DNA of 32,000 nucleotides from Candidatus Arthromitus sp. SFB-mouse-Japan (GTDB taxonomy: Bacteria > Bacillota > Clostridia > Clostridiales > Clostridiaceae): contig NC_015913.1 of NCBI RefSeq assembly GCF_000270205.1, positions 1,080,001 through 1,112,000 on the forward strand, written 5' to 3'. Below, piece after piece: positions 2,323 through 30,418 of the stretch. Below the pieces are notes generated by a model. The model was not told where the DNA came from and did not search any database. It saw only the letters and a list, made by a program, of their open reading frames with translations. A program made the translations under genes and the position numbers. Position 1 is the stretch's first letter; each line of letters begins with the position of its first letter.

Positions 2323-5300
2323 TTAATATCTTAGTCCCATAGAAGTAATATATTGTTTGAATTCTGATTCATTCATCATTTCACTAGCTATTCTTATTCT
2401 TAATTCTGCCAATGACTCTACTTGTAATTTATATTCATCATATTTTCCTTCCCAATACTTCTGTCCTTCTTCTTCAGGATCTCTTCCAACAACTATTTTA
2501 TACATCATTTTTACGAATTCTTCTTTACTAAGATATCTGCTTATAAATTCATCTTGTTTCATCAAACCATAAATAAATTGAGTCACTGGTAATTCCTTAG
2601 ATTCCAATTTTTGAACCCAAAATTTCCAACCCTCAACTTCTGGATCACGTCCAAGTGAAACAGAATAAATTTTTGATACAAATTCTGCAACTTTTCCAGT
2701 AGGTGGTTGTAATTCTTGTTTTGTCGTAAAAGAATCAATTTTATATCTAGTTATTAAACCATTCTCAAGTTTAAAAGTTATCTCTAAATCTCTGTAAGTC
2801 GTCATTGGTTTCAAGTCGCTTAATCTTAAAATTAATGAATTTGTATCCCAAGTAAATTTAATTTTTTCATCATTCAAAGCTACACTAGATATTTTTGATT
2901 TTGGAGATGCGAATAATTCAAATACAATTTCCGCACTCTTATCAGTAGTAGTTATTTTCGTTGATTTTACATCAACAGATGGAGATTGAGGTGTGGATAT
3001 TTTTGCATATTTTGATAATGTTTGTTCTTTATTATCCTTATCTTTCCAAATAAAATCAAGTTTATATACTGATTCAGTCTTTGGCTCTAGATTTGTGAAT
3101 TTTAAGAGTCCTCCCTCTAACTTAAGCTCAACATTAGGATTATTGCTTGGCTTTTGGAAGTCAATTCTTAAAAATCTTTCATTTAAATCATCAATTAATA
3201 CTGGTATTTCAGCTTTTCTAGCCTCTAAAGTTTTGGCCTCAAATAAAGTTACATTAAATGAATCTGTTACACTCAACTCTGGTCCTGTCTGGTTATCAAG
3301 CGTTACATCTGGAACTTGGTGTATACCTGTAGTCGTAAAAACTGCACTTGGAGATGTAGGCGCACTAGGTATACTAACATTAGTTATTTTATTAATATCA
3401 TTCAATACTTGTCTTGTAATAAGTTCTCTCTTATCGATGTCTATATAGCTAAGTTCAAGAATCAAAAATCCATAATCTCTCTTCTCTGACAAATTATACA
3501 AAGTTAAAATAAAATAAATTTTCTCTTTCCCTTCAATTTTTTCAACTTTGTATTTCTCTTCACCTTTAAGTCCATTAACAGTTAAATTCTTAATAGTTAC
3601 ATCACTATTATCAACTTCTATTACATATCTTAGAGATGTTTTATCATTCTTAACAGCAGGTATTATTGTTTTATTTGGAAGTTCAACATTTAATTTTGGA
3701 AAAAATACTTCAACTGTATCAGTGGAAGAAGCTGCTGACGAAAAAATTCCTTGTTTTATATCAACATATTTTTTTTCTGGATCAAGTTCTATATAGAGCT
3801 TAGGCTCTGTAAAGTTTGAAGTTCTAATTGATAAATTATGCGTGCTTACAGTTGTTACAGTTGTTACAGTTGAACTACCACTAGTAGTAGCAGATGTCAT
3901 TATTTGTGAAAAGTAAAAAGTTTTTGTTATATCTTTGTCTTCTGGCTTCGCTGTTACATATAACTTTCTAAATGTATATGGAGTCGATCTCTGTAATCCT
4001 GTTATATTAAGATATCCACCTTTTTCTGGTTTATCTGTATTAATTAAAGAAACAGATGCTGAATATTTGTTAAGTCTATCATCTTCTACTTCCATCTTTG
4101 TTATTGTACTATCTTTATCAAATATCTTGAAAGTATTAAATCTTATGCTATTACCATTAGTTCTCAAGGCTATATTTGAAGCTGTAGTTGATATCATTTG
4201 TTCATAATCCAAATAAGTTGTATCATCTATAGAATTAAAATCAATATTCATTTTTGAACCTACATTACTATTAGGTAATGTATATATCATATTTGAAACT
4301 TCAAGTGATGAATTTGATGATGATACTAAATAAGTTTCAAAAAGTGGTAATTGTTTACCAGTCTTGAAGTTTGTCATGCCGAATCCTTCAAGATAGTTAA
4401 CAACTGATAGATTATTAAGATCAGGATAAAAAGTAATATTCTTGTTTAACGCAATAAACTGGTAATTTGTGTTAGTCTTCAAAAATTCGTATGGTTGAAA
4501 ATCAGATCCATTCTTTATATCAAATTTTATAGCCATTCCATCAGCATTCAAATTCAAATTAGATGCTTTAACATTACTAGTCACAGAATTATTGATTAAT
4601 GAATCTTCTGCTATGATACTTCTTAAATAATCCATGCTTGTTGGAAATATAGTTTCTCCATCATAAATTACTGAAACTTGTTTAGGAGAAATATCATCAA
4701 TATCTTTAAAACCAAATATTAATGGTAACGTATCACGATCATAATCAACATCATTAGACTGAAATACTTTTCTTAAAGCTAATGCCAAATGAGCTCTGTT
4801 TGTTATATTAGGTATTCCTGCAGGAGCACTAGGCGATGTCATCCCAGCTGGAGTTCTAACTCCATTAATATCATCAATCATCTCATTTGCAGCTTTGATC
4901 ATAAAGTCTCTTAAACTAGCTGTTACAGTTGTCGGTGTACTAGAAATACTAGAAATACTAGAATCCATAAATACAACATCGTTTAAATTAAAAGATGAAA
5001 CTAATGATACTGTTGCAATAACATCCAAAATTTTTCCAGTCAATACGAAATTTGACTTAGCCTTACCTTGGAAAGTATACATTCCACTCTCAACTGTAGT
5101 CTCTGCAGTAGATATTATTAAATCTACTCCTCCAATTGTACTCTTAAACTGCGAAATCGTTCCTGTTGGCTTAGTTACATTACTTGGAATTCTTGTATCT
5201 TCTACTGCTCTTGTCGCACCATAAACAGACATATTATCTAAATTATCTATTATTTCTTGATTAATTTTGGATTCATCTTGTAAATCACTTATAATTTCTG

Positions 5301-5850
5301 AACTATCATTCGAAACTACTTGATCAATACTTAAATCTGGAATGATACTATCTTGGACTCCATCCATCTGTTCTACTTCCGTGTTTCCTTGATTATATTC
5401 TCCTGATCCGGACACGGTAACTCCATTCTCTTGAGCATCCGTTTGATCTTGTGAATCGTTTGTATTGTCCTCACTGTTATTTTCACTTTGTAGTGCATTT
5501 TCTTGACTGTTTGTTTCGTCATTTTCAATAATTTGTTCAGAATCTTCTTTCTTTTCAAATTCCATTTGAACAACATCTCCTTCCTCCACTAATATTGTTT
5601 CCTCTTCTTTAGTGGATTCCTGAAAATCTTGTAATGGTTGTTCATTTTCACTCACGACCGTCTCCATATGTTCTAATTTTTCTACCTCATCTACGCTTTC
5701 AGCTGTATTTTTACTAATCCCACTATTAGCTTGCTCCATAATTTTATTATAAATTTCATTGAAATTTAATGAGTTATTATCATTTTGGTCTTTCATGAAT
5801 TTTTTGATTCCTTTAAAATTAATTGATTCAATATCATTATTAGTTACCAT
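2323..5850 (-). CDS. Paralog P4 of the large FN3-like/DUF4214 surface-protein family; lacks a signal peptide
   Basis: 1175-aa ORF. The C-terminus VAEFVSKIYSVSLGRDPEVEGWKFWVQKLESKELPVTQFI...FVKMMYKIVVGRDPEEEGQKYWEGKY...EFKQYITSMGLRY is two DUF4214-like repeats, colinear with P1-P3. It shares internal blocks with them (LRYVIEVDN, KRDYGFLILELSYID, IPVLIDDLNERF, FTNLEPKTESVYKLDF). The N-terminal ~170 aa are E/Q/N/D-rich with no hydrophobic leader. No Shine-Dalgarno precedes the ATG. Confidence 0.8.
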   Translation of the reverse strand: MVTNNDIESINFKGIKKFMKDQNDNNSLNFNEIYNKIMEQANSGISKNTAESVDEVEKLEHMETVVSENEQPLQDFQESTKEEETILVEEGDVVQMEFEKKEDSEQIIENDETNSQENALQSENNSEDNTNDSQDQTDAQENGVTVSGSGEYNQGNTEVEQMDGVQDSIIPDLSIDQVVSNDSSEIISDLQDESKINQEIIDNLDNMSVYGATRAVEDTRIPSNVTKPTGTISQFKSTIGGVDLIISTAETTVESGMYTFQGKAKSNFVLTGKILDVIATVSLVSSFNLNDVVFMDSSISSISSTPTTVTASLRDFMIKAANEMIDDINGVRTPAGMTSPSAPAGIPNITNRAHLALALRKVFQSNDVDYDRDTLPLIFGFKDIDDISPKQVSVIYDGETIFPTSMDYLRSIIAEDSLINNSVTSNVKASNLNLNADGMAIKFDIKNGSDFQPYEFLKTNTNYQFIALNKNITFYPDLNNLSVVNYLEGFGMTNFKTGKQLPLFETYLVSSSNSSLEVSNMIYTLPNSNVGSKMNIDFNSIDDTTYLDYEQMISTTASNIALRTNGNSIRFNTFKIFDKDSTITKMEVEDDRLNKYSASVSLINTDKPEKGGYLNITGLQRSTPYTFRKLYVTAKPEDKDITKTFYFSQIMTSATTSGSSTVTTVTTVSTHNLSIRTSNFTEPKLYIELDPEKKYVDIKQGIFSSAASSTDTVEVFFPKLNVELPNKTIIPAVKNDKTSLRYVIEVDNSDVTIKNLTVNGLKGEEKYKVEKIEGKEKIYFILTLYNLSEKRDYGFLILELSYIDIDKRELITRQVLNDINKITNVSIPSAPTSPSAVFTTTGIHQVPDVTLDNQTGPELSVTDSFNVTLFEAKTLEARKAEIPVLIDDLNERFLRIDFQKPSNNPNVELKLEGGLLKFTNLEPKTESVYKLDFIWKDKDNKEQTLSKYAKISTPQSPSVDVKSTKITTTDKSAEIVFELFASPKSKISSVALNDEKIKFTWDTNSLILRLSDLKPMTTYRDLEITFKLENGLITRYKIDSFTTKQELQPPTGKVAEFVSKIYSVSLGRDPEVEGWKFWVQKLESKELPVTQFIYGLMKQDEFISRYLSKEEFVKMMYKIVVGRDPEEEGQKYWEGKYDEYKLQVESLAELRIRIASEMMNESEFKQYITSMGLRY

Positions 5851-5900
5851 TTTAATGTTTTATGACAAATTTAATGAACTTTATTTCATAAAAATAAATT

Positions 5901-5935
5901 AAAAAAATAAAGAACTCATAATAATGAGTTCTCTT
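5901..5935 (-). terminator. Rho-independent terminator after the 85-aa gene
   Basis: Perfect 8-bp stem AGAACTCA/TGAGTTCT (5911-5918 / 5925-5932) with a 6-nt loop, followed on the minus strand by TTATTTTTTT. Confidence 0.7.
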
Positions 5936-5971
5936 TATACAAAATAACTGCTATTAAATAATCTACCTATA

Positions 5972-6229
5972 TTAATCTGTTACACCATCTTCTATTAAGT
6001 TAGTAGTAACAAGCTTAACATCATATCTTGTGTGATCAACTAGTTCTGCTACAGCTCTCGCTGCTGCACTCAAAATATCATTTGTCAATCCTGACTTTAT
6101 GTCTGCAATTGTTCTTGTAAATTTTCTCACAGTTCCATCAAGATTATCAGTATAAAAAGTTATTACAAGGCTAGTAGCTAGCGTTGTAGATGTTATTACT
6201 TGAGTGTTAAATAGATTGCTTACTCCCAT
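5972..6229 (-). CDS. Small 85-aa protein, DUF1659-like (function unknown)
   Basis: Intact ORF with GGAG about 11 nt upstream and its own terminator. The pattern ...SLVITFYTDNLDGTVRKFTRTIADIKSGLTNDILSAAARAVAELVDHTRYDVKLVTTNLI resembles, from memory, the small Firmicutes DUF1659/DUF2922 proteins (beta-strand, G-K/T turn, 'tf.nvk...t.e.l..va.al..L'). The family assignment is tentative. Confidence 0.45.
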   Translation of the reverse strand: MGVSNLFNTQVITSTTLATSLVITFYTDNLDGTVRKFTRTIADIKSGLTNDILSAAARAVAELVDHTRYDVKLVTTNLIEDGVTD

Positions 6230-6266
6230 GTCTACACATTCTCCACAGCTATTATTATTTCAAAAT

Positions 6267-6327
6267 AGTAGATGAACTCGGTATAAGGGGCTTTTCTGGA
6301 TAATTGGTGAATTCAAGTTCATCTACT
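6267..6327 (-). repeat. 12-bp perfect inverted repeat with a 37-nt spacer, between the P3 stop and the small gene
   Basis: AGTAGATGAACT (6267-6278) and its reverse complement AGTTCATCTACT (6316-6327). On the minus strand it is followed only by ATTTTG. It is an atypical long-loop hairpin: a possible weak terminator, processing site or attenuator. Confidence 0.4.
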
Positions 6328-6369
6328 TTAATATAATATTATCTGTTATAACAATTTATTCCAAAAATT

Positions 6370-9300
6370 TTAATACCTAAGTCCTATTCTAGTTACTAAC
6401 TCTTTAAATTCTGGTTGATCCATCATTTCTCTTGCAATCTTAATTCTAAGTTGCTCAATAGTTGAAACCTGGTCCCTGTATTCGACATATTTACTTTCCC
6501 AGTATTTTTGACCTTCCTCTTCTGACTCCCTATCTACTATTAAAGTATACATCGTTGAAACAAACTTAGATTTAGTTAGCTCTCTATCAACAAATTCTGG
6601 TTGAGTCATTAAATTCTCAGCTATAAATTCTGTAGCACTAAGTTCTTTACTTTGTAATTTCTCTATCCAAAAATTCCATCCTTCATTTTCTGGTTCACGT
6701 CCAAGTGCAATCTTATAAACTCTCCTCACAAATTCAGCCACATCACCTTTTGGTCTATTCTCATCAATAACTGTCTTAAAAGTTCCAAGTGGATATTCAA
6801 CACTCTTGCCATTTTCTAAAATTAATCTTATAATAACATTTGTGTAGGTGTAGTCTGGTTTAAGTCCTTCTAATTTTATAGTGCTTATATCTTTATCCCA
6901 TGTTGCCTTAAGAGCATTGTTTAAATCATCAAGAACTGTAACTGACTTCACCTCCGATTTTGGATTGTTATAAATGTTTAATTTAATATTTACTTTAGTT
7001 AGGTCTACAACCTCAATATCCGTGGACTTAATATCATAATCTGGTGTTTCTGTAGTACTCAACTGAACATATTTTTTTATCTGTTTTGTTTCTCTAGAAA
7101 CACCATTATCTTCGCAATTAAATATTATAGTAAACATCCCACTCGTTTCTGGTTTCAAATCGCTAAATTCCAATATAAAGTTATCATAACTTACTCTAGC
7201 ATTTGGATTATCTACAGGATTTTCAACATCAATTGAAGTTACTCTATTTTCTAGGTCATCAATTAAAATCGGAACTCTTGCCACTCTTGCATATGATGAT
7301 GTAAAACTATCACTCAATGAAATCTGCACGGCCTCTTCAATCGGTAAAGACTCGGCCTCAGTCATGTTGTCATATTTTGTATTTTCACCTTTTGTCGAAT
7401 TTAATGTAGATAAACTCTTCCTAGAAGTTTGAACGTTACCACTATCATCTAAATAATTTAATTCCAAAATTACAAATCCATAATCTTTATTCTTCTCTAA
7501 ATTGTTTAAAGTTACTATATAGTAGTTTTGTTTCTGAACCCTATCTACTATCTTCTCAACTTGATATGATTCCGAACCCGTAAGACTTATAACTTTAAGA
7601 TCTAAAATATTTCCTTGCTTATTATCAACTTTAAAAACATATCTTAGAGCTGTATCAGAATTTTTAACGGTATTCATTTCAATACCATTTGGAAGTTTAA
7701 CTGTCGAAGAATTTGTAGCTGCCAATTGAATTTTTGGTTCAGGTTGCTTAATAGTCCTTATAGGTATATAATTCTGTTTCACACTTCCATTATCATAACA
7801 ACCCAAATCCAATTCTTGGCTTGTCATTCTTCCATCCGTATTTGATGTAATAAATAATTTTGTAAAAATATAAGACGTATCGCTTTCAAGACCATTAACT
7901 TCAATCGAAAAAGTATCTGTATATTCTGAAATTAAACTACAACTATATCTATAACCTCGATCATCCTGAATTTCAACCCTTGATATACTCCTATCAGGAT
8001 CACGGAAAGTTATATTTTTAAATTTAATAGAATTTTCTGCGATAGAAATATCTGATTCACTTGTCCCATATGATCCCATATCCAAATAAACACCATTTTT
8101 AAATTGTGTAACATACATATCATTTTTTGATGTACCTTGTAAGTTTTGAGAATTTGTTTCATATAAATTAGGTTTCGCTGCATTTTTAGATATAAACAAT
8201 GCTGGTGCTTTACCTGTTTTACAATTACTTAATCCAGTTAAAGTCAACTTAACATCATCGCCGACAGTTATATCTCGATTTGTTTGTGACTCCTCTAGAG
8301 CACCAAGACTATAAACTGTATTAGTTAGAAGTTTATCACCAACATTTTCATTTCTAACTACAATTCTCAAAGCAATATTACTTGGATCAATTCCATTATC
8401 TAATTTCGTATTACCTAGATCAATGATGCTTTTTATATAATCATCAGTATTAGGTACAAAATCTGAACTCATTTTAATCTTCTTCACACCATGTGTACTT
8501 TCAAATGATAATTGTGCATTCATATCATCTAATATCTTAGAAAGGGCATCACGAAGTTTCTTTCTCTCTGTTACAGTTTCAGAACTACGGTCACCTTTTG
8601 CCTCTTGATATGCTCTCTTAATTAAATCTCCAAGAGTTCCAGTTTCAAAATTTTTAACTCCATAAGTTAAAGGCTCTTCTTCAGTATCTTCTACATCATC
8701 TGTAATGTCACTATCCTCAGAGTCTGTTGGAGGTTTTGTTGATTCACTCGGTGATTCTTGTGATGGTGGTAAGCTTGATGATCCTTCCATATTAACTTCA
8801 TCATCACTGGGTTGATCTGTACTTCCTCCATCAACTTCTGGTTTTTCTTCTTCACCAACATCTGGAGTCCCATTTACACCATTATCTGGAATTCCTTCTC
8901 CCTCATCTGGTTTATTACCACCATCTTCTGTTGGTGGTTTTTGTTCTCCATCTCCATTACTCGGTTTATCACTATCTTCTCCTGATGAATCTCCTGAACC
9001 ATCATCAGTACCTCCCTCTGAAGGCTTGTTCTCATCTTCTCCATTATCTATATCACCTCCACCAGTTCCATCATCTGGTTGTTCTGGAGTTACTGGTATA
9101 TCAATCTTTGACTCTAATATTTTTCCTGATAATTTCAAACTCAACTCTATTGTTCCATAAGGTGTATATGATTCTCCCGCTCCAACTAGCTCAGAACTTC
9201 CTGTACTTTTTACAATCTGAACTTGACTTTGATTTGTTACTGTTGGCTCTGAAGGTTGTTGATCTCCTCCACTTTCTGGTGGTGTTTGAGAAGTATCTCC

Positions 9301-9711
9301 ATCACTACCAGTTGGTGGTGTTGTATCTCCTTCAATTGTTGGCGGTATTGCAACTTCATCGTTTGATGGAGGTTTACTTGAACCCCCTTCATCCACTGAT
9401 GGTCCCTCTGAATCTTCACCTTCACCACCTTCAGAACCATCTCCTGAACTATCATCACTTGGTGGTATAGTTCCCTCTACTTGTTCTGTATCGTCAGGAT
9501 TCTCACTTTCTTCACTAGATTCTCGAGTAATCGTAGTATTTAAATATGCGTACAATGAATCACTATCTTGACTTACCTCAGCTCTTGCGTAATTCAAAGC
9601 TGTTGCAACTTCCCTATTATATTGTGTACTATAAGGCACAAAGCATCCTGAAAAAATACTTGATGTAACAAACATCGTAATTAACATAAAACTAACTTTT
9701 CTCTTATTCAT
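6370..9711 (-). CDS. Paralog P3: surface lipoprotein with acidic disordered regions, FN3-like modules and a double DUF4214 C-terminus
   Basis: 1113-aa ORF. MNKRKVSFMLITMFVTSSIFSGC has a lipobox. GGGAGGG Shine-Dalgarno upstream. Two D/E/G/S/P-rich low-complexity segments. FN3-like signatures (VNGLESDTSYIFTKLFI, LNNLEKNKDYGFVILEL, FSDLKPETSGMFTIIF, LEGLKPDYTYTNVIIRL). The C-terminus is EGWNFWIEKLQSKELSATEFIAENLMTQPEF...EEEGQKYWESKY... Confidence 0.85.
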   Translation of the reverse strand: MNKRKVSFMLITMFVTSSIFSGCFVPYSTQYNREVATALNYARAEVSQDSDSLYAYLNTTITRESSEESENPDDTEQVEGTIPPSDDSSGDGSEGGEGEDSEGPSVDEGGSSKPPSNDEVAIPPTIEGDTTPPTGSDGDTSQTPPESGGDQQPSEPTVTNQSQVQIVKSTGSSELVGAGESYTPYGTIELSLKLSGKILESKIDIPVTPEQPDDGTGGGDIDNGEDENKPSEGGTDDGSGDSSGEDSDKPSNGDGEQKPPTEDGGNKPDEGEGIPDNGVNGTPDVGEEEKPEVDGGSTDQPSDDEVNMEGSSSLPPSQESPSESTKPPTDSEDSDITDDVEDTEEEPLTYGVKNFETGTLGDLIKRAYQEAKGDRSSETVTERKKLRDALSKILDDMNAQLSFESTHGVKKIKMSSDFVPNTDDYIKSIIDLGNTKLDNGIDPSNIALRIVVRNENVGDKLLTNTVYSLGALEESQTNRDITVGDDVKLTLTGLSNCKTGKAPALFISKNAAKPNLYETNSQNLQGTSKNDMYVTQFKNGVYLDMGSYGTSESDISIAENSIKFKNITFRDPDRSISRVEIQDDRGYRYSCSLISEYTDTFSIEVNGLESDTSYIFTKLFITSNTDGRMTSQELDLGCYDNGSVKQNYIPIRTIKQPEPKIQLAATNSSTVKLPNGIEMNTVKNSDTALRYVFKVDNKQGNILDLKVISLTGSESYQVEKIVDRVQKQNYYIVTLNNLEKNKDYGFVILELNYLDDSGNVQTSRKSLSTLNSTKGENTKYDNMTEAESLPIEEAVQISLSDSFTSSYARVARVPILIDDLENRVTSIDVENPVDNPNARVSYDNFILEFSDLKPETSGMFTIIFNCEDNGVSRETKQIKKYVQLSTTETPDYDIKSTDIEVVDLTKVNIKLNIYNNPKSEVKSVTVLDDLNNALKATWDKDISTIKLEGLKPDYTYTNVIIRLILENGKSVEYPLGTFKTVIDENRPKGDVAEFVRRVYKIALGREPENEGWNFWIEKLQSKELSATEFIAENLMTQPEFVDRELTKSKFVSTMYTLIVDRESEEEGQKYWESKYVEYRDQVSTIEQLRIKIAREMMDQPEFKELVTRIGLRY

Positions 9712-9728
9712 TTCAAACCCTCCCTGTT

Positions 9729-9768
9729 TTTAAAAAAAAAGATGGCTAGATAAGCCATCTTTCTTTTT
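9729..9768 (-). terminator. Strong rho-independent (bidirectional-looking) terminator after paralog P2
   Basis: Perfect 8-bp stem AAGATGGC/GCCATCTT (9738-9745 / 9753-9760) with a 7-nt loop, flanked by an A9 run and a T-rich run. On the minus strand the stem is followed by T9. Confidence 0.8.
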
Positions 9769-9776
9769 TGAAATGA

Positions 9777-12700
9777 TTAATATATCAATTGAAGTTTAGT
9801 CACTAACTCTTTAAACTCTGGTTGATCCATCATTTCTTTTGCAATTTTAATTCTTAACTCAGCTATAGACTTAACTTGATCCTTGTATTCATCATATTTT
9901 CTTTCCCAATAGTTTTGGCCATCACTATCTGGCTCCCTATTAACTATTAATGAATACATTGTCGTAACAAACCTCGATTTACTTAACTCCCTATCCACAA
10001 ATTCTGGTTGAGTCATTAAGTTTTCTGCAATAAATTCTGTAGCTGAAATCTCTTTTGATGTTAATTTTCCAATCCAAAAATTCCATCCTTCAACTTCTGG
10101 CTCACGTCCAAGAGCTATTGTATAAACTCTTGCAACAAAATCTGCAACTGCTCCAGTTGGTTTAATAATTTCTTCGCTAGTTGTAAATGGAGTCAACTCA
10201 TATTTACTTGTCAATTTATTTTCGAGAGTAAATGTTACTACAAGCTCACTATACTCTTTGTTTGATTCAAGATTATACAATGTTATAGTATTAGTTGTTT
10301 TATCCCAAGAACTTCTTATTACCTTAGAGTTTTTATCTTTAATTTCTATTGCCTTAATAGGTGATTTTGGATTTTCATAATACTCAAGTTTTATAGTCAC
10401 TTCATTTCCTTTAACAGTTGCTGTATCGCTCTTAATATCTACTTCTGGCACAGCTGGAGTCATAACTTTTAAATATTTTGTTAATACTTTATCATTACCA
10501 CTTGCATCTTTGTAATTAAATTCTAAAGTTATTGTTGTAGTTGCATTAGGTTTTAATCCTGTAACATCTAAATAAGAATCCTTATACTCAACTTTAACAT
10601 CTGAATTATTTGTTACAGGTTTAAAAGTCATACCAGATACTCTTCCATAAATATCATCAACAAAAACTGGAACTCTTGCTTTTCTTGCATATTCACTCTT
10701 AAACTCATCATTCATTATTACGTTAACATCATTTAATCCTGTTAAAGCTTCCTTCTCTGTTCTATTATCCATTGTTGGATTTTTATCATCAGTCTTATAA
10801 ATATTTCCTATAGATTGTCTTGTAGTTTTATCATTACCACTTGCATCCTTATAACCAAGCTCAAAAATCACATGACTATAATCAGTATTAGGTGTAAGAC
10901 CTGTTAAAGTTACTATATAATAGTTAGTTTTTGTCTTACTATCTTCAATCTTTTTAACATCTGCTTTCTCATTTGAAGTTAAAGAAAGTACTTGTAAATC
11001 TCCAATATTTCCTTCATTATTATCAACTTTAACTATATATCTAAGTGCTGTAGAATCATTCTTAACTGGTTTTACTTTTAATCCATTAGGTAAAGTAACA
11101 TCTTCAGTTACCTTTGCAGAACCTAATTCTATTTTTGGCTCAGAAACTTGAGTTGTTCTAACAGATAATTGGTTAGCTGTAACATTATTACTAGCATCCA
11201 CGTTAGCTAAATCGATTGTAACCGTTTTATCTTTTACCCCAGTGTTTGAAGTTACAAGCAATTTTGTAAACGTGTATGACATATCCCTCTCAAGGTTATT
11301 TACTTGAACATAATATCCATTATCTTTATTTGAAAGATCAACTGGAACTAGACTACACGTATATTTTGTACCTCTAGCATCCTGCATTTCAATTTTCACA
11401 ATAGTACTATCTGGATCGTTTAAAACTATATTTTTATATTTAATTGATGTTCCACTAGCTACTATTCCTTCTTTAACATTTTCGTGATAATCTGTCATGT
11501 TTAAATAAATTCCTGGTTTAATCATCGTTGTTATATATTTATCTTTTAAAGTACCCTTATCAGTACCTGATGAAGTCTGATATATAACACTTGTAGTTTT
11601 ATCTTCCTTCTGAGCTGTTAAAATTGAAGGTGATTTACCCGTTCTACATTCTGGTACTGTAAAGCCTGATATGAATTGATTATCATTTGCATCTACCTTA
11701 ATATTATTTCCATCACTGTTAGTTCCACCTATACCAACAAATGTATAGTCAGTGTTGGTTTTTAATATTGAGTTATCATTATTTGATGCAGAACTATTTC
11801 TTATCATCATTCTTAATACAACATCTTTAGAATCCGTAGATCTTGCAGTTCTCATAGTTCTTCCTGTAGTCCTCATACTGTTTAAATCTATAATACCTCT
11901 TACATAATCCTTGTTACTAGTTTTATCTGGGAATATATCGCTAATTGGAACATTTACAAGGGTACCTTTTGGATCTCTAAACATTAACGTTTTTCCTGTA
12001 TTATTATCACAAATCACTTTTTTAAGAGCAGCTTGCAAAGCTTCTCTAGCTGTTGTTGTACCTTCTCCTGACCATCCACTGTTAGAATCTTTAATTGCTT
12101 CATCAAAGGCACCTGAAATTAATCCACTTAGATTTTCTTTATTTAATACTTCTCCTGATAACTTAAAGCTCAAATAAATAACACCTTGAATATTACCATC
12201 ATCACCTGTACCTATTACTTCGCTTGATCCAACACTCTTTAATGGTACGAATTCTCCTATCGTTGTTCTTTCTGTGCTAGCTTGTGGAGAAATAGCAGAT
12301 TGTGAATTAGACTGTGGAAGATTTGGATCATTTTGAGCATTATTATTAATAGTTACTCCACTAGTTGATGGTGTTGTTCCTTCGCTAACTCCATTATTTG
12401 GAGATATAATATTCCCTTGTCCTGAATTATCTACTACACCTGTACCTTGTGAAATGCCTGAATTATCTACTATATCTGTACCTTGTGAAGAATTTGAACC
12501 TGTTAAATCATTTGTATCAGTCAATGAAGAAATATCATCTTCTACAACAGCTCCCCCAAATCCTGTCATAGTATTACCGTTACTAAATGAATTAATATTA
12601 TCATTTGATATTATTTCATCAGATGGAGACATTTCATATGGTGTCATTTCATAATCTGTTCCCATTTGATCAAATAAATTTGTATCATTTGACCTTGCAC

Positions 12701-13064
12701 CCATTTTTATATCATTTGTTGTTTCACCATTTTGAATTCCATTGTCATATACATTTGTGTCACCACTAAAAATATTTTGATCATCCATTAATGCTCCATC
12801 TGTAATTTCATCACCATAGGTAACATTTGGATAATTTCCAGGATTATAATCTGGCGCTGTATTATCTGTATATGGGTTATTTACTCCATATCCATCTCCT
12901 GTATATTCTGTAACAGTTCTATCTGTTGCTCTTCTAAATGCATCCTCTCCTTGTGCTACATTTGCACCATTATCTGCACTCTTATTATTTGATGTGCATC
13001 CTGTTAACATACTTGAGGCAACAACTAATCCAGTTAATAGAAGTGTAATTTTTTTTCTATTCAT
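9777..13064 (-). CDS. Paralog P2: surface lipoprotein, N/D/G/S/T-rich linker, FN3-like modules, double DUF4214 C-terminus
   Basis: 1095-aa ORF. MNRKKITLLLTGLVVASSMLTGC has a lipobox. AGGAGG upstream (13079-13084). It is colinear with P1 over nearly its whole length after the linker. The C-terminus is EGWNFWIGKLTSKEISATEFIAENLMTQPEFVDREL...DSDGQNYWERKY... Confidence 0.85.
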   Translation of the reverse strand: MNRKKITLLLTGLVVASSMLTGCTSNNKSADNGANVAQGEDAFRRATDRTVTEYTGDGYGVNNPYTDNTAPDYNPGNYPNVTYGDEITDGALMDDQNIFSGDTNVYDNGIQNGETTNDIKMGARSNDTNLFDQMGTDYEMTPYEMSPSDEIISNDNINSFSNGNTMTGFGGAVVEDDISSLTDTNDLTGSNSSQGTDIVDNSGISQGTGVVDNSGQGNIISPNNGVSEGTTPSTSGVTINNNAQNDPNLPQSNSQSAISPQASTERTTIGEFVPLKSVGSSEVIGTGDDGNIQGVIYLSFKLSGEVLNKENLSGLISGAFDEAIKDSNSGWSGEGTTTAREALQAALKKVICDNNTGKTLMFRDPKGTLVNVPISDIFPDKTSNKDYVRGIIDLNSMRTTGRTMRTARSTDSKDVVLRMMIRNSSASNNDNSILKTNTDYTFVGIGGTNSDGNNIKVDANDNQFISGFTVPECRTGKSPSILTAQKEDKTTSVIYQTSSGTDKGTLKDKYITTMIKPGIYLNMTDYHENVKEGIVASGTSIKYKNIVLNDPDSTIVKIEMQDARGTKYTCSLVPVDLSNKDNGYYVQVNNLERDMSYTFTKLLVTSNTGVKDKTVTIDLANVDASNNVTANQLSVRTTQVSEPKIELGSAKVTEDVTLPNGLKVKPVKNDSTALRYIVKVDNNEGNIGDLQVLSLTSNEKADVKKIEDSKTKTNYYIVTLTGLTPNTDYSHVIFELGYKDASGNDKTTRQSIGNIYKTDDKNPTMDNRTEKEALTGLNDVNVIMNDEFKSEYARKARVPVFVDDIYGRVSGMTFKPVTNNSDVKVEYKDSYLDVTGLKPNATTTITLEFNYKDASGNDKVLTKYLKVMTPAVPEVDIKSDTATVKGNEVTIKLEYYENPKSPIKAIEIKDKNSKVIRSSWDKTTNTITLYNLESNKEYSELVVTFTLENKLTSKYELTPFTTSEEIIKPTGAVADFVARVYTIALGREPEVEGWNFWIGKLTSKEISATEFIAENLMTQPEFVDRELSKSRFVTTMYSLIVNREPDSDGQNYWERKYDEYKDQVKSIAELRIKIAKEMMDQPEFKELVTKLQLIY

Positions 13065-13077
13065 AACCTTCTTAAAA
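13026..13077 (-). repeat. 52-nt block identical to 16333-16384 (5' cassette of P2)
   Basis: CTAATCCAGTTAATAGAAGTGTAATTTTTTTTCTATTCATAACCTTCTTAAA occurs identically at both sites. It covers the codons for MNRKKITLLLTGL plus 13 nt of leader. Similarity continues, imperfectly, through the AGGAGG and beyond. Confidence 0.9.
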
Positions 13078-13117
13078 CCTCCTAATTTATAAAATAACCT
13101 TCGTAATTTTATCTAAA

Positions 13118-16100
13118 TTAATATTTTAATCCTAATGAAGTTACTAACTCCTTGAACTCCTTCTCATTCATCATTTCTCTTGCTATTTTAATTCTCAAGG
13201 TTGCAACTGAACTTGTTTGTTCTCTGTATTCGTTATATTTTTTCTCCCAATAACTTTGTCCATCTTCATCTGGAGTTCTATTAACTATCAATGAGTACAT
13301 AGTTGTAACGAATTGTTGTTTATTTAACTCTCTTTCAATAAACTCTGGTTGAGTCATTAAATTTTCAGCTATAAACTCTGTAGCTGAAAGCTCTTTAGAC
13401 GTTAATTTATTAACCCAGAAATTCCATCCTTCAGCCTCTGGCTGACGTCCAAGTGCTATTGTATAGACTCTTGATACAAAGTTCGCAACATCACCTGTTG
13501 GTTTTGGAGTAACTGTACCAGTTTTAAATGAAGTTAATGGATACTCTATAACTTCTGTATTTTCTAAAGTAAACTTAGCAATCAATCCTTTAAACTCCGT
13601 ATTTGCATCCAATCCTTGTATAAAAATTGAATTTGTTGATGAATCCCAATTAGAAGTATATTTTTTACCTGTTGAATCCTCAATTGATATAGATTTAATA
13701 GGAGATTTTGGTGTTGAATAATACTCAAGTTTAACTATAGCCTCATTTTCCTTAATAATCACTGTATCTGATTTAATATCTAAATCTCCTGTAACTGGTG
13801 TCTTTATAGTTACATACTTTCTCATACTTTTCTCTATACCAGCATCAGTTTTATAAACAAATTCTAAAGTAATAGTAGTGCTTGAATTTGGAGTTAAACC
13901 TGTTACATTTACATAAGAACCATCATACTCAACTTTAACATCTAAATTTGATTCTAATGGAATGTAATTCATCCTAACAAATCTTCCATTCATATCATCA
14001 ATGAATAATGGAACTCGCGTACTCCTTGCATAATCAGCTTTATGATTTGTTTCAATATCTACTGTAAAAGTGCCTTGTCCTGTAATAGGAGTATTCTCTG
14101 TTACGTTATCAACTGTTTTATCATCTCTCTTAGTATTAATTTGAGCTAATGTTGTTCTAAGAACCCCATCTTTTCCATCATAATCTTTATAATCTAATTC
14201 TAAATTAACAAAATTATAATCTGTTCCTGGAGATAGACTACTTAAAGTTACTACATAATAATTAGTTTTACTTTTCTTATCTACAATCTTTTGAATCTTA
14301 GACTCTTCTCCAGGTCTTAAACTCGTTACTCTTAACTCCCCAATATTATCTTCGGAATTATCAACTTTTAAAACATATCTAAGAGAAGTTGCATCATTCT
14401 TAACAGCTTGTACCTTTAATCCACCAGGAAGTGTAACAGTTTGTTTTGGTCCATCTGCTCCTAACTCTAACTTTGGCTCACTAAAGTTAGTTGTTTTAAT
14501 TGCTGTAGTATTAACTGTAGCCCCCGCAGTATCTTTTTTCATCAATTGAAGTACGTTTAATTGATCCTTACCTTCAGTATTTGTAGTTATATCAATTTCT
14601 GTAAAGATGTAACTACTATCAGTTCTTAATCCACTAATTTGCAAATATTTACCAGCTTTTTTGTTATCAGGATCTACTTGAATTAATGTTCCAGGATAAG
14701 TTTTGCCCTCTGAATCTTTCATTTCAATCTTAACTATACTATCATCAGAATCAACAAACTTAATCCCTTTAAATCTTATAGTTGTACCCCTAGCCTCTAC
14801 TTTATCAGGACTATTTAAATCGAAATCTTCTACGTTTAGATAATTTTTCTTATTAAGTTTTGTTACATATACCGTTCCAGTAGTTACAGTTCCTGCTGAA
14901 CCATTACTAAGATTTTCATATATAGCACTAGTTGAACTGTCTTTCATTATTTGTATAGTAGAAGGAGCTTTAGCTGTTGTTGCTTGAGGAATTCTTAATC
15001 CTGTAAGAACTTTATCATCTTTTATTGGTAACTCATTATTCTTAACTGTGCTACCAGTTAAACCTACAAATGTATAACTTGTATTTGTAGCTAACTCATC
15101 ATTACCTTGTCCATCTGCACTTTGAAATCTCATAATAAGTGTAATTGGAATATCTTGTGAAGTAGCTCTTACTGATCTTTTTCCACCATCTCTGTACATA
15201 CCATCAATGTCAATTATTCTTCTTACATACTGTGAATTTTTATTCTTATCAGGACAAATATTAGCAGCTGTATATGGTATGTTAATTATTTGACCCTTAC
15301 TGTCCTGAAATGTAAAATTATTACCAGTATCTGTTGGATTAAATATCTCAGCTAATCCTTTTTGTAAAGCTTCTCTTGCTGTAGTATTTTGTGCAGCTCC
15401 TTCAAAGTTTGTATTCGCATCTTGTAAAGTTTCTTCATAAGCCTTTTGTATTAAATCAGCTAAAGTACTTTGAGTACTGCCATTGGTAACTTGTGTAGAA
15501 AGTACATCTCCTGTTAACTTGAAACTAAATCTAATAGTTCCTTGTGGTTTTTTACTTCCTTGAGCACCGGTTAATTCTACACCACCAATACTTCTTACAG
15601 GTACTATATTACCAGCTACAGTACTTTGAGTATTTCTACCCTCTTGTATTGTTTGTGGAGTATCCATGACTTGTCCATTAATATCTGAACTCATATTTGT
15701 ATTTGGAGTCATTCCATTCTGAGTATTATTATTTACATCCATATCATTTTTAGTTGTGTCAGAATTATTAGATATATTTGGATTTTCAGTTGTATTTAGA
15801 TTGCTATCAACTCCATTTATCCCAGACACATCTTGTCTACTTGAATTTGTTGACCCATCTGATAAATCACTTCCATTTGTTCTATCTGGTAATCTTCCAA
15901 AACCATTCAATGGCTCCATGATAGACGCATTGTTTTGGAATTCATTTATATTATCTTTTCCTGACACATCCTCTGATGAAATCAAATTATTTCCCGTTCC
16001 ATTTTCATTTATTGACTCATCAGATGTTATATCTCTAGAATATCTATTTAAATTCTCATCTACTGAGTTATTAAATCCATTATCAGTTCCATTATCAAAC

Positions 16101-16372
16101 TCATTAACTGTATCCATTCCCGTTATATCATCAGCATAAGCAACATCTGGATATCCTCCAGATTGATATTGATTATTAGAATTGTATGGATATTGCGCTT
16201 CTTCTTTAAACTCTGTTACAATTCTCTCTGTTGCTCTCTGCAATCCATTCTCATCATATTGAGAAACTTTATTGTTATCTTGAGTTTTGTTACCTGATGA
16301 TGCACATCCTGTAAATATACTTGAGGCGATCGCTAATCCAGTTAATAGAAGTGTAATTTTTTTTCTATTCAT
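13118..16372 (-). CDS. Paralog P1: surface lipoprotein, N/S/T/D-rich linker, FN3-like modules, double DUF4214 C-terminus
   Basis: 1084-aa ORF. MNRKKITLLLTGLAIASSIFTGC has a lipobox. AGGAGG upstream. FN3-like signatures (ISGLRTDSSYIFTEIDI, LSSLSPGTDYNFVNLEL, VTGLTPNSSTTITLEF, IQGLDANTEFKGLIAKF). The C-terminus is EGWNFWVNKLTSKELSATEFIAENLMTQPEFIEREL...DEDGQSYWEKKY... I found no terminator between its stop (13118) and the P2 start (13064). Confidence 0.85.
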   Translation of the reverse strand: MNRKKITLLLTGLAIASSIFTGCASSGNKTQDNNKVSQYDENGLQRATERIVTEFKEEAQYPYNSNNQYQSGGYPDVAYADDITGMDTVNEFDNGTDNGFNNSVDENLNRYSRDITSDESINENGTGNNLISSEDVSGKDNINEFQNNASIMEPLNGFGRLPDRTNGSDLSDGSTNSSRQDVSGINGVDSNLNTTENPNISNNSDTTKNDMDVNNNTQNGMTPNTNMSSDINGQVMDTPQTIQEGRNTQSTVAGNIVPVRSIGGVELTGAQGSKKPQGTIRFSFKLTGDVLSTQVTNGSTQSTLADLIQKAYEETLQDANTNFEGAAQNTTAREALQKGLAEIFNPTDTGNNFTFQDSKGQIINIPYTAANICPDKNKNSQYVRRIIDIDGMYRDGGKRSVRATSQDIPITLIMRFQSADGQGNDELATNTSYTFVGLTGSTVKNNELPIKDDKVLTGLRIPQATTAKAPSTIQIMKDSSTSAIYENLSNGSAGTVTTGTVYVTKLNKKNYLNVEDFDLNSPDKVEARGTTIRFKGIKFVDSDDSIVKIEMKDSEGKTYPGTLIQVDPDNKKAGKYLQISGLRTDSSYIFTEIDITTNTEGKDQLNVLQLMKKDTAGATVNTTAIKTTNFSEPKLELGADGPKQTVTLPGGLKVQAVKNDATSLRYVLKVDNSEDNIGELRVTSLRPGEESKIQKIVDKKSKTNYYVVTLSSLSPGTDYNFVNLELDYKDYDGKDGVLRTTLAQINTKRDDKTVDNVTENTPITGQGTFTVDIETNHKADYARSTRVPLFIDDMNGRFVRMNYIPLESNLDVKVEYDGSYVNVTGLTPNSSTTITLEFVYKTDAGIEKSMRKYVTIKTPVTGDLDIKSDTVIIKENEAIVKLEYYSTPKSPIKSISIEDSTGKKYTSNWDSSTNSIFIQGLDANTEFKGLIAKFTLENTEVIEYPLTSFKTGTVTPKPTGDVANFVSRVYTIALGRQPEAEGWNFWVNKLTSKELSATEFIAENLMTQPEFIERELNKQQFVTTMYSLIVNRTPDEDGQSYWEKKYNEYREQTSSVATLRIKIAREMMNEKEFKELVTSLGLKY

Positions 16373-16384
16373 AACCTTCTTAAA
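16333..16384 (-). repeat. 52-nt block identical to 13026-13077 (5' cassette of P1)
   Basis: See the 13026-13077 entry. The block includes a T8 run on the + strand (A8 in the mRNA) at codons 3-6. Confidence 0.9.
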
Positions 16385-16528
16385 CCTCCTAAATTTTTAA
16401 AATAGCACTTAATAAAAATAAATAACTCGAACCTTTTAAAAAATAAAAATATTTAATAAATCAGCAATTTCTTAACTACTGATAAAACTATTATGAACAA
16501 TTTATTTTTTTATATTCATATTTTAAAA

Positions 16529-16559
16529 TAAAAAAAATGACTACTCTAAGAATAGCCAT
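16529..16559 (-). terminator. Weak rho-independent terminator after the deacetylase gene
   Basis: On the minus strand: ATGGCTA-(9-nt loop)-TAGTCAT (7 bp including one G-U pair) followed by T8, immediately after the stop at 16565. Confidence 0.45.
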
Positions 16560-16564
16560 TTTAA

Positions 16565-18385: not shown

Positions 18386-18470
18386 TTCCTCCTTTAAAAA
18401 TTTTTTTGAAAATTATATGTAAAAACTATGTTTTATTATAATAGTTAATCTCTTTTTATACAATATGTAT

Positions 18471-18552: not shown

Positions 18553-19299
18553 ATGAGAATAAATAAAAATTCTAATATCACAAAAGCCTTAAGTGTTTTT
18601 AAAATTGGAAAAGTAAATAATAATTTATCAAAAAATAATTCAAATTCAGACAATATTCAAATTAATTATCTTATGGATGAGCTTACAGAATCCCAATATA
18701 TAACACGCAATTACCAAATAGGTATAACTTATGTACAAATAGCCAAATCCACTTTGAGTGAAGTAAAGAAAACTATTTTAGATATGAAAGAAATTTTTGA
18801 TAAATGTAAAAATGAAGATAATACTTCTTTTGGTCGTGAATCACTAAATTTTAAATTCGAAGAATTGTGCCAAAAATTCAACAAAGAATCGAACAAATTA
18901 ACTATAGATATAAGAGAAAATTTATTTTATAATAGCAATAACGAACTTGTATTTAAAGTATTCGATTCAAAGTCTCTAGAAAATTGTATTCTTATTCCTA
19001 AACTCGACGCAAACAAATTAAATCTTAGAAATATAAATATAAAAAACGAAATCAACGCTAATGAGGCATATAATAAAATGAATCAAGCTCTTGACTATAT
19101 CCTTTTGTCAGAGAAAGCAATAAAAGATTCTGAAGAAAAACTTCTGCGAGTTAATCTAACAGATATTATGTCTGCAAATCTCATGGCGTTAAGTAGCAAT
19201 GAAAACAAAGAATCTATTGAAAAATTATTAGAGCTAACAAGAAGAGGCTTGCTCAAAGAAGGCAACACCTATTTGAAAGAAATAAACAAAGATAAATAA
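18553..19299 (+). CDS. Minimal, highly divergent flagellin-family (FliC/FlgL-like) protein
   Basis: 248-aa ORF with a strong AAGGAGGA Shine-Dalgarno. The N-terminus MRINKNSNITKAL... follows the flagellin MRINxN start. NYQIGITYVQIAKSTLSEVKKTILDMKEIFDKCKNEDNTSFGRESLNFKFEEL tracks the flagellin N-domain pattern N.QDGIS.LQTAEGAL.EV..ILQRMRELAVQA.N.T.S..DR..i..Ef..L. The C-terminal helix pattern is ...AIKDSEEKLLRVNLTDIMSANLMALSS... Confidence 0.55.
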   Translation: MRINKNSNITKALSVFKIGKVNNNLSKNNSNSDNIQINYLMDELTESQYITRNYQIGITYVQIAKSTLSEVKKTILDMKEIFDKCKNEDNTSFGRESLNFKFEELCQKFNKESNKLTIDIRENLFYNSNNELVFKVFDSKSLENCILIPKLDANKLNLRNINIKNEINANEAYNKMNQALDYILLSEKAIKDSEEKLLRVNLTDIMSANLMALSSNENKESIEKLLELTRRGLLKEGNTYLKEINKDK

Positions 19300-24265: not shown

Positions 24266-24754
24266 TCAAATATCAGCAGCTATCTTATTGTTTAATATTT
24301 TATGTTTCATATAAAAAGCAGTAGGAACTGAAATATCCAAATTCTTTGCTGCTGTTCTTATAGTATTCTCATTCGTTACCTCTTTTACACACATCTGAAT
24401 TTTTTCAAATGGTAACTTCGCATTATGAAATATTGTATTAGTCGTATCAGAAAATGTTTTTCTACACTCCTTACATCTAAATCTTTCTTTCGTAACTCCA
24501 TCTTTATATTTTGTATATTTCTGATGCCTTGATATAGAAATACTATTACAATAAGGACATCTTCTATTGCTTTTATCATTTATAATTTTTAACAAATATA
24601 TAATTTCTTTTCTGCTTAAAATAATTTTATCATTTGCCTTAAAAATATTTATGAGTGCATTGTAATCAATCCTATCTGTACTTTTCAGATAATTAATTAT
24701 ATCTTCCTTACTTTTAATTTTTATATTTATATCTGTAACTTTAATATTATCCAT
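24266..24754 (-). CDS. Transposase-derived zinc-ribbon + HTH protein (IS1595/IS1 InsA-like N-terminal domain only, no DDE domain)
   Basis: 162 aa. RRCPYCNSISISRHQKYTKY..KERFRCKECRKTFSDTTNTIFHNAKLPFEKIQMCV...NTIRTAAKNLDISVPTAFYMKHKI matches the CPxC...RxxCxxCxxxFS..tGTif..skl pattern of the transposase zinc-ribbon domain, followed by an HTH. There is a unique 60-aa N-terminal extension. A GGGGG Shine-Dalgarno lies upstream. Confidence 0.6.
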   Translation of the reverse strand: MDNIKVTDINIKIKSKEDIINYLKSTDRIDYNALINIFKANDKIILSRKEIIYLLKIINDKSNRRCPYCNSISISRHQKYTKYKDGVTKERFRCKECRKTFSDTTNTIFHNAKLPFEKIQMCVKEVTNENTIRTAAKNLDISVPTAFYMKHKILNNKIAADI

Positions 24755-28434: not shown

Positions 28435-28553
28435 TTACTACCTATTTTAAAAATTATTCTATAATAAACTATATTTTCAAATACTAATAGTTGATTGTTA
28501 TTAAAAATATTTTTTGTTAAAATTGAATTAATAATAATTTTATGGAGGTTCTT

Positions 28554-30388: not shown

Positions 30389-30418
30389 AAAAGGCTACTA
30401 GTTAACTAGTGGCCTTTT
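30389..30418. terminator. Bidirectional terminator hairpin shared by convergent glmS and the DUF4214 gene
   Basis: AAGGCTACTAGT-TAAC-TAGTGGCCTT (one G-U pair), flanked by an A-run and a T-run. The stop codon and last codons of the minus-strand gene (..KRPLVN*) lie inside the stem. Confidence 0.7.

Follow-up and report, generated by a model that had tools for sequence, protein, structure and literature searches.

Segmented filamentous bacteria (SFB) are commensals known from textbooks for driving Th17, IgA and CD8 responses in the intestine, which depend on epithelial contact. The genome of Candidatus Arthromitus sp. SFB-mouse-Japan carries an array of four large paralogous genes, P1 to P4 (2323–16372), on the minus strand of a 32,000-nt stretch that is analysed here (contig NC_015913.1, positions 1,080,001 to 1,112,000; hereafter the window, G+C approximately 29%), and the question raised by this locus is what its products build. 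The surface of SFB was imaged only in 2025, by cryo-electron tomography (cryo-ET), which distinguished a surface layer (S-layer) spaced at 8 nm on the intracellular offspring, a hair-like layer spaced at 5 nm on the filaments and 34-nm hairs at the tip, all without a known protein component (PMC12780176). With moderate confidence, based on sequence and a structural model, the array products are read here as structural envelope proteins that would build or decorate an SFB surface layer, tethered by lipid and seated on a wall glycopolymer through their DUF4214 tails. The locus offers four concrete surface-layer candidates that are conserved in mouse and rat SFB, with peptide-level detection for the array.

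A first-pass annotation of the window had described a tandem array of paralogous surface proteins and taken it for a recombining or gene-converting family of adhesins or antigens. That observation holds, and so does the reading of the architecture, but the evolutionary interpretation was wrong. The family itself is already known as an uncharacterised SFB-specific group; the present analysis adds a domain map, a head domain without structural match, a conserved signal-less terminal copy, synteny with variable copy number and a conserved developmental-type promoter motif.

Architecture of the array proteins

The four same-strand open reading frames (ORFs) coincide exactly with those first annotated. 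Exact protein look-ups identify P1 (13118–16372, 1084 aa), P2 (9777–13064, 1095 aa) and P3 (6370–9711, 1113 aa) as SFBM_1027, SFBM_1026 and SFBM_1025, respectively, and the last gene, P4 (2323–5850), encodes 1175 aa as an ORF. All-vs-all alignment gives pairwise identities of 29–44% with BLASTP E-values from 1e-117 to 0, and the proteins are collinear from a conserved block to the C-terminus, which bears out a paralogous family with a common modular architecture. In sequence order, all four consist of a low-complexity acidic spacer, a head of 265 aa, four fibronectin type III (FN3)/immunoglobulin (Ig)-like β-sandwiches that form a rod, and two helical DUF4214 repeats; in P1, and likewise in P2 and P3, these follow a lipoprotein signal.

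The N-termini of P1–P3 begin with MN[RK][KR]K and a hydrophobic stretch, followed by the lipobox FTGC in P1, LTGC in P2 and FSGC in P3, with the cysteine at position 23 (Cys23). Lipoproteins were recognised by pattern matching only, as a positive n-region, a hydrophobic h-region and the lipobox [LVI][ASTVI][GAS]C within approximately 35 residues, and on this basis the lipoprotein signals originally proposed for P1, P2 and P3 hold. The P2 signal peptide (12996–13064, MNRKKITLLLTGLVVASSMLTGC) has an N-terminus nearly identical to that of P1 and to those of other SFB lineages. Pattern matching across lineages finds the lipobox in 27 of the 28 family copies that are not of the signal-less terminal type. 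No LPXTG sortase motif is present anywhere in P1–P4, and in each protein the last DUF4214 helix is followed at once by the C-terminal residues, ...GL[KR]Y or QLIY. Neither SLH (PF00395) nor CWB2 (PF04122) was found in any of the four by Pfam (E up to 0.01), and an NCBIfam scan of the array proteins returned no matches.

The spacers comprise 139–244 residues of low complexity. Their composition differs from copy to copy as was first described, and in addition all are strongly acidic (pI approximately 4). The P1 spacer (aa 24–251) is rich in N/S/D/T, the P2 spacer spans aa 24–267 (12264–12995) with 43 gap positions against its rat ortholog, and the N-terminal region of P4 is acidic and rich in E/N/S/D/Q. 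P3 contains a second spacer-like segment, a 143-aa D/G/E/S/P insert that splits the head (aa 213–355).

P2 was chosen for modelling, and residues 268–1095 were modelled by AlphaFold2 from an alignment of 23 family sequences (mean pLDDT 86). The head (aa 268–532, 11469–12263) is predicted to be a compact α/β plus β unit that includes the conserved block of the first-pass annotation; its approximately 265 residues combine two long helices with a long β-hairpin and a subdomain rich in β-structure, and when modelled alone it reaches a pLDDT of 86 and a pTM of 0.82. Foldseek detected no structural relatives of the head (best E 0.047 in the PDB and 0.2 in BFVD, TM ≤0.22), and a sequence search of the PDB with the family profile gave no matches. 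The rod (10194–11465) consists of four predicted β-sandwiches at approximately aa 534–630, 642–755, 780–868 and 876–957. When the whole P2 model is compared to the PDB, the best matches are tandem Ig/FN3 proteins (NCAM, titin, contactins, cadherins and the FN3 domains of fibronectin), with SraP and the S-layer protein SbsB ranked lower. The FN3-like modules proposed earlier are therefore upheld at the level of the fold and not at that of sequence, since Pfam reports fn3 (PF00041) in P2 only, at 18.9 bits (E 0.0018) and under the gathering score of 25 bits.

The DUF4214 tails

PF13946 (DUF4214) matches two stretches in each protein with 56 (P1), 62.7 (P2), 51 (P3) and 54.7 bits (P4) and E-values from 1e-13 to 3e-17, well over the gathering score of 23.2 bits, so that the double DUF4214 tail is established in all four. 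The tails lie at 13121–13492 (P1), 9780–10151 (P2, E 3.4e-17, ending in QLIY), 6373–6744 (P3) and 2326–2694 (P4), and the eight helices in this part of the P2 model correspond to the two repeats. A weak match to PBS_linker in P4 (E 0.0026) falls under the Pfam cut-off, and 33 of the 60 non-SFB proteins with the closest tails match this family as well. The phycobilisome linker (PF00427; PDB 2KY4, cited by Pamp et al.) has a helical-repeat fold related to DUF4214; unlike the array proteins, it serves as a scaffold for cytoplasmic pigment complexes.

The same 60 proteins pair DUF4214 with Big_2, BspA-LRR, choline-binding repeats, SH3_3 and G5, and include peptidoglycan enzymes with VanY, YkuD, CHAP or glucosaminidase domains alongside it. 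Such partners are typical of envelope-targeting modules, and DUF4214 is probably one of these. The only functional evidence on DUF4214 found in the literature concerns Psh, an RTX-DUF4214 protein of Pseudomonas putida that coats the cell by binding the O-antigen of lipopolysaccharide (2026 preprint, bioRxiv 10.64898/2026.09.02.748959). Psh resembles the array proteins in having a C-terminal helical DUF4214 region on a secreted protein and in coating a surface through a glycan. It differs in being from a Gram-negative bacterium, in its type I secretion and its RTX N-terminal domain, and in having no lipobox, Ig-like rod or paralog array; only the tail is homologous. The cryo-ET study reported that SFB are without SLH-type anchors and proposed DUF4214 as a surface anchor (PMC12780176).

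Pamp et al. (2012, Genome Res, PMC3371716) had earlier grouped SFB-specific secreted proteins with C-terminal DUF4214 domains and suggested that they are components of surface structures. Their Cluster.1 and Cluster.3 share with the array the organism group, predicted secretion, low overall similarity and conserved PF13946 C-termini, and one member has a predicted FN3 domain; the published description stays at the level of the cluster. The array family has the defining features of these clusters (SFB-specific, predicted secreted, DUF4214 at the C-terminus), and the four genes almost certainly belong to them on sequence grounds. The statement in the first-pass annotation that no characterised system is built in this way therefore stands in that no function is known, and is amended in that both the family and the DUF4214 anchor had been put forward (PMC3371716, PMC12780176). 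No published mention of the array was found through its locus tags or accessions, and the literature found describes neither the tandem organisation nor the lipobox, the layout of spacer, head and rod, the terminal copy without a signal or the conserved leader.

Distribution and synteny

The distribution of the family rests on an exhaustive hidden Markov model (HMM) search of 1.84 billion representative proteins, three word-indexed protein searches having given few matches. The search returned 6,602 matches, and the full body was matched in approximately 20 clusters only, the rest matching the DUF4214 tail alone. Because so few clusters match over its full length, the protein body is, judging by this search, an SFB invention. 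The gene order of Na/Ca exchanger, deacetylase, array, SBP_bac_5 gene and peptidase is kept in rat SFB, two further assemblies, a metagenome-assembled genome (MAG) labelled 'Clostridiales', an uncultured Arthromitus MAG and Ca. Dwaynia gallinarum from chicken.

A possible surface-layer role

In the favoured reading, P1–P3 would be exported and tethered to the membrane by their N-terminal lipid, the acidic spacer would thread through the peptidoglycan, and the folded head and rod would be exposed at the wall or outside it. The DUF4214 pair would hold a conserved wall or surface glycopolymer non-covalently and so take the role that SLH or CWB2, both absent from SFB, has in other Firmicutes. This arrangement resembles that of SlpA and the Cwp proteins of Clostridioides difficile (CWB2) and of Sap and EA1 of Bacillus (SLH), in which paralogs combine one conserved non-covalent wall anchor with differing domains; Bacillus anthracis exchanges S-layers during development (cited in PMC12780176). 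The array proteins depart from those systems in being without SLH or CWB2, in placing the candidate anchor (DUF4214) at the C-terminus, and in their additional N-terminal lipid anchor, long acidic spacer and unmatched head fold. Two SFB peptides of a published gut-fluid list map to the array, the P3-unique peptide NFETGTLGDLIK (mass spectrometry) and a tail peptide shared by P2 and P3. The domain map tells which module is the candidate wall binder, which is merely a spacer and where antibodies could be raised.

Several observations weigh against this reading. A lipid anchor at one end and a wall-binding module at the other make an unusual topology for an S-layer, and P4 has the head, rod and tail of P1–P3 with no signal peptide and no cysteine; confidence is kept moderate because of this two-ended attachment and the missing P4 signal. 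The earlier view of the family as exported thus holds for P1–P3, with their lipoprotein signals, and fails for P4. The single exception to the conserved lipobox is rat P3 (locus L001, 13278–16496), in which the cysteine is replaced by histidine (IFSGH), so that this protein may be secreted or anchored differently in rat SFB. No solved structure was detectable by sequence with the profile of the array family. The hair-like structures seen by cryo-ET are only approximately 1.3 nm wide, thinner than a rod of Ig domains (PMC12780176). Finally, the immunodominant, cell-wall-associated Th17 antigen (SFBNYU_003340, EGX28318) is encoded elsewhere, approximately 204 genes from EGX28522-4.

The Th17 epitopes and the published CD8 epitope SGLIYVTL are absent from the window, and a degenerate Th17-epitope pattern had no matches in metagenome contigs. 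At least one other DUF4214 protein, SFBNYU_003240, is a defined T-cell antigen (PMC13174671).

The signal-less terminal copy and upstream motifs

A more specific proposal, which refines the surface-layer reading and does not exclude it, is that the array is assembled from two compartments: P1 and P2, perhaps with P3, would be transcribed in the forespore-like offspring and exported, and P4 would be made by the mother cell and deposited from outside, together building an offspring-specific S-layer or a spore outer layer. In SFB the intracellular offspring takes the place of the forespore-like compartment, and it is on these cells that the S-layer is found. The proposal is suggested by a forespore-type motif upstream of the array taken together with the signal-less terminal paralog, and it is regarded as rather unlikely.

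The alignment of mouse and rat P4 begins only at Met19 (MKDQNDNN...), with AAAGGA just before it, and for these reasons the true start of P4 is probably the ATG at 5796–5794. Among mouse-SFB isolates P4 is 1175, 1172 or 1169 aa long, the exact protein look-ups returning the two shorter variants, and the differences arise from 3-aa insertions or deletions (indels) in short SIS and TTV repeats (aa 297–299 and 661–663; approximately 4960–4968 and 3868–3876). The last array gene is signal-less with an acidic N-terminus and adjoins the SBP_bac_5 gene in all five lineages in which that end of the array is seen (mouse, rat, L003, L005/P0135 and P0128/P0133). Because it is common to all five, the absence of a signal in P4 is not an accident of annotation. 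Lacking an export signal, P4 would have to bring the same folded body to its site by another route.

The transcription units of the array were partly as first annotated. An intrinsic terminator with a 10-bp stem and U-run follows P2 (9730–9762), and hairpin searches placed terminators after the small DUF1659 gene (5909–5934) and after P4 (2291–2321); none was found between P1 and P2. P3 is followed only by an atypical hairpin with a long loop and then UAUUUUG (6260–6331, z = -4.05), a possible terminator with arms conserved in rat. All of these are on the minus strand. The ribosome-binding site of P3 comes directly after the P2 terminator, so P3 requires read-through or an internal promoter.

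Across five lineages the approximately 190 nt that lead into the first array gene (the leader; 16373–16564, minus strand) have 77% column identity, more than the 40–50% of the proteins encoded downstream. Homologous regions lie in L001, L002, L004, L006 and L007. Inside the leader, directly after the deacetylase terminator, lies TGAATA-N17-CATAATA (16489–16518, minus strand), a motif like forespore (σF/σG)-type promoters. It matches mapped σF/σG promoters of C. difficile such as those of CD2375 and spoIIR, the consensus being taken from the C. difficile tables. The corresponding pattern, G[TA]ATA-N17-[CA]A[TA]A[AC]TA, was chosen after the sequence had been seen and has a single hit in the whole window, with 0.6 expected per 64 kb. 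In related loci the only hits on the scanned strand are at the homologous site, 129–145 nt upstream of an array gene, so that the motif occurs in six lineages, upstream of the first gene in five of them (including L001, L002, L006 and L007) and upstream of gene b in L004. The presence and conservation of the motif suggest a candidate σF/σG promoter upstream of the array and hint at developmental regulation.

Other elements of the leader leave room for a different explanation. The bases of the motif also form an inverted repeat (ATGAA...TTCAT) without covariation, which could be an operator instead, and a conserved extended -10-like element, TGCTATTTT, is nearer to the ribosome-binding site. 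Also conserved in the leader are a hairpin, ATCAG-N14-CTGAT, in which one pair covaries, and the invariant elements TATTTTTA..AAnTGCTATTTTA. No Rfam family or riboswitch was recognised in the leader, and RNAalifold gave no convincing covariation outside the upstream terminator.

Upstream of P4, the σE-like motif ATAAAG-N14-CATAAAAC (5857–5884, minus strand) is identical in rat, and a related block, TGAAAATAAATTCATAAAAA, occurs in L005. The case for a σE-type promoter of P4 is weak: the motif is kept only between mouse and rat, and its regular expression also picked up an unconserved site ahead of the Na/Ca-exchanger gene, where the conserved element is σA-like. Within the window, the hexamer ATGAAC/GTTCAT is found 10 times against 23 expected, and four of the 10 are in the short intergenic regions of the array (5874–5879, 6272–6277, 6317–6322 and 16493–16498), often as TGAA...TTCA inverted repeats with differing spacings. 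These sites may serve a shared regulator.

Further support for assembly from two compartments comes from the setting of the array. In mouse, rat and L003 a small DUF1659 gene (Pfam and synteny) separates the signal-less copy from the last lipoprotein copy. In the window it encodes 85 aa (SFBM_1024 by protein look-up, 5972–6229, minus strand), and its homologs lie at 16643–16909 in L001 and 13741–14091 in L003. The gene evolves fast (mouse and rat products 57% identical, with a ratio of nonsynonymous to synonymous substitution rates (dN/dS) of 0.66). DUF1659 was tied to endospore formers in one domain-phenotype study, and the Staphylococcus aureus homolog, SroA, is regulatory. Sporulation-type neighbours are also present, with a CspBA-like gene in the window and a spoIIAA-AB-sigF operon in L003. 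An offspring-specific S-layer is known in SFB (PMC12780176). The regulatory lead would tie surface assembly to the sporulation-like life cycle. It is somewhat less probable still that the whole scheme holds, in which the array would be the sought outer-layer protein set, with P1–P3 from a forespore promoter, P4 from the mother cell and DUF4214 as the lock on the glycopolymer. If true, DUF4214 would be a new class of Gram-positive wall anchor, and a sigma cascade derived from sporulation would have been repurposed to make the surface of offspring cells that are alive.

Selection on the array and possible adhesin function

The array proteins could alternatively be host adhesins, with Ig-like rods holding out the head towards the ileal epithelium and with the divergence among SFB of different hosts reflecting host adaptation. 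Tandem Ig/FN3 rods are typical of adhesins, the Foldseek matches of the P2 model include SraP and cell-adhesion molecules, and the body is restricted to SFB. The mouse and rat orthologs are 65–78% identical, below several neighbouring genes, and the transient, tip-restricted 34-nm hairs have been proposed as attachment organelles. The likeness to SraP and MSCRAMM-type adhesins extends to elongated β-sandwich rods with a terminal functional domain. Unlike those proteins, the array products have no LPXTG and no recognised ligand-binding domain, and their fn3 sequence similarity is sub-threshold.

Selection was estimated from mouse-rat ortholog pairs (two orthologs per gene) as region-level dN/dS by the Nei-Gojobori method. 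The spacers have ratios of 0.62–0.86 (P2, 0.76) with many indels, and the rods 0.17–0.20, on a par with the flanking SBP_bac_5 and methyl-accepting chemotaxis protein genes (0.20). The heads have ratios of 0.14–0.16 in P1 and P2 and 0.30–0.37 in P3 and P4. The DUF4214 pair is the most constrained part at 0.05–0.14 (P1, 0.05; P2, 0.14; P3, 0.06). By these ratios the spacers evolve almost neutrally and the folded parts are under purifying selection. The "variable heads" of the first-pass annotation are thus the low-complexity spacers, and the folded head is among the better conserved parts. Diversifying selection on the heads was considered and is ruled out at the region level by dN/dS.

Adhesin function is judged unlikely in this light: the head is conserved, the overall dN/dS of the array genes (0.22–0.27) is close to that of the flanking SBP_bac_5 and methyl-accepting chemotaxis protein genes (0.20), and no known adhesin or lectin domain was found by Pfam, NCBIfam or Foldseek of the head. 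In addition, one copy is apparently not exported, and the module that is conserved best is an envelope domain of a generic bacterial kind.

Neighbouring genes and possible nutrient capture

Upstream, the array is flanked by the Na/Ca exchanger and polysaccharide deacetylase genes, before which (18400–18470, minus strand) a σA-like TTG[TA]AT-N17-TATAAT is kept in six lineages. Downstream it abuts an SBP_bac_5 lipoprotein gene, followed in other lineages by an M20/M28 peptidase gene. The array products might accordingly be nutrient-capture lipoproteins that work with this adjacent oligopeptide-binding protein and peptidase, like the surface glycan-binding lipoproteins of Bacteroides. The array always abuts these two genes, a lipoprotein with Ig-like domains resembles SGBP-B (Foldseek rank 48), and SFB are auxotrophs (PMC12780176). 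Such a role is very improbable, as terminators separate the array from the SBP_bac_5 gene, the Foldseek match is a generic Ig-like similarity, no binding domain was recognised, and the DUF4214 tail and the signal-less copy are left unexplained.

Age and stability of the paralogs

The last 368–391 nt of P1–P3 are 73–78% identical, as similar at the nucleotide level as the first-pass annotation had reported. The silent sites between paralogs are saturated in the tail as they are in the body (proportion of synonymous differences, pS, 0.56–0.76 and 0.51–0.66), with dN three- to four-fold lower in the tail, so the tail similarity is attributed to amino-acid constraint. The fraction of conserved residues with the same codon is equal in tail (0.49–0.66) and body (0.52–0.61). 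In a GENECONV-like permutation test, the longest runs of silent identity were not significant; the sole hint is at codons 2–22 of P1 and P2 (a run of 17 identical silent sites, p = 0.065), two genes whose ribosome-binding sites, like their first 22 codons, are almost the same. The mouse and rat orthologs pair one to one at 78, 77, 65 and 73% identity, and the tree groups orthologs, not paralogs. Among mouse-SFB isolates (11–14 distinct variants) there are 9–28 variable positions, none of them in the tails of P1–P3, and indels are confined to P4, with two 3-aa slips.

The saturated pS, the silent-run permutation test and the ortholog-clustering tree rule out gene conversion or concerted evolution in the tails, and the near-invariant mouse isolates rule out hypervariability within one host species. 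On this sequence evidence the paralogs are old and stable, predate the split of mouse and rat SFB, and are functionally distinct and kept by purifying selection. Copy number, which had been expected to vary, is four in both mouse and rat and differs only between distant SFB lineages, with at least six in L003 and approximately five or six in L004 and L005. One of the L003 copies is split into a body of 739 aa and a detached DUF4214 tail of 134 aa (7006–9225 and 9556–9960); it is probably a pseudogene and points to gene death in the array. Gene birth and death are, from these comparisons, visible only between distant lineages. The reading of the array as variable antigens or adhesins that recombine or undergo gene conversion, with the conserved tails as recombination substrates, to which the tandem same-strand arrangement, the similar 3' ends, the near-identical P1 and P2 starts, the differing copy number and the split copy had pointed, is extremely improbable given the saturated tail sites, the one-to-one orthologs, the invariant tails of the mouse isolates and the location of the 'variable' regions in disordered spacers. 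Antigenic variation by gene conversion is therefore removed as an idea for this locus.

Other features of the window

A distant relative of the array, reported earlier as a fifth remote member, lies at 30398–32000 on the minus strand. The gene runs in frame off the end of the window, as had been noted, and its relationship to the array is only weak: DUF4214 scores 21.8 bits (E 2e-4, below the cut-off), and BLASTP aligns it to the last β-sandwich plus tail at E approximately 1e-5. It has two units, each FN3-like plus DUF4214-like, and an N-terminal hydrophobic segment, IFVVFCLIFISTFVLF; the start at 31783 in the ORF list is an edge artefact.

Elsewhere, the window contains radA, a CspBA-like double subtilisin and glmS. 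No glmS ribozyme or any other Rfam family was found at threshold across the window, including 28435–28541 upstream of glmS. The double subtilisin is a 1191-aa protein with two subtilisin domains (24859–28434, minus strand) that the source record names Csp serine protease; it looks like the CspBA-like germination-protease fusion of C. difficile. Between radA and the csp gene, a 162-aa protein (24266–24754, minus strand) has a CxxC...CxxC zinc ribbon and a probable helix-turn-helix. A 248-aa protein encoded at 18553–19299 on the plus strand is weakly similar to flagellin N-terminal regions (E approximately 3e-3), and its position is kept in rat and other SFB lineages.

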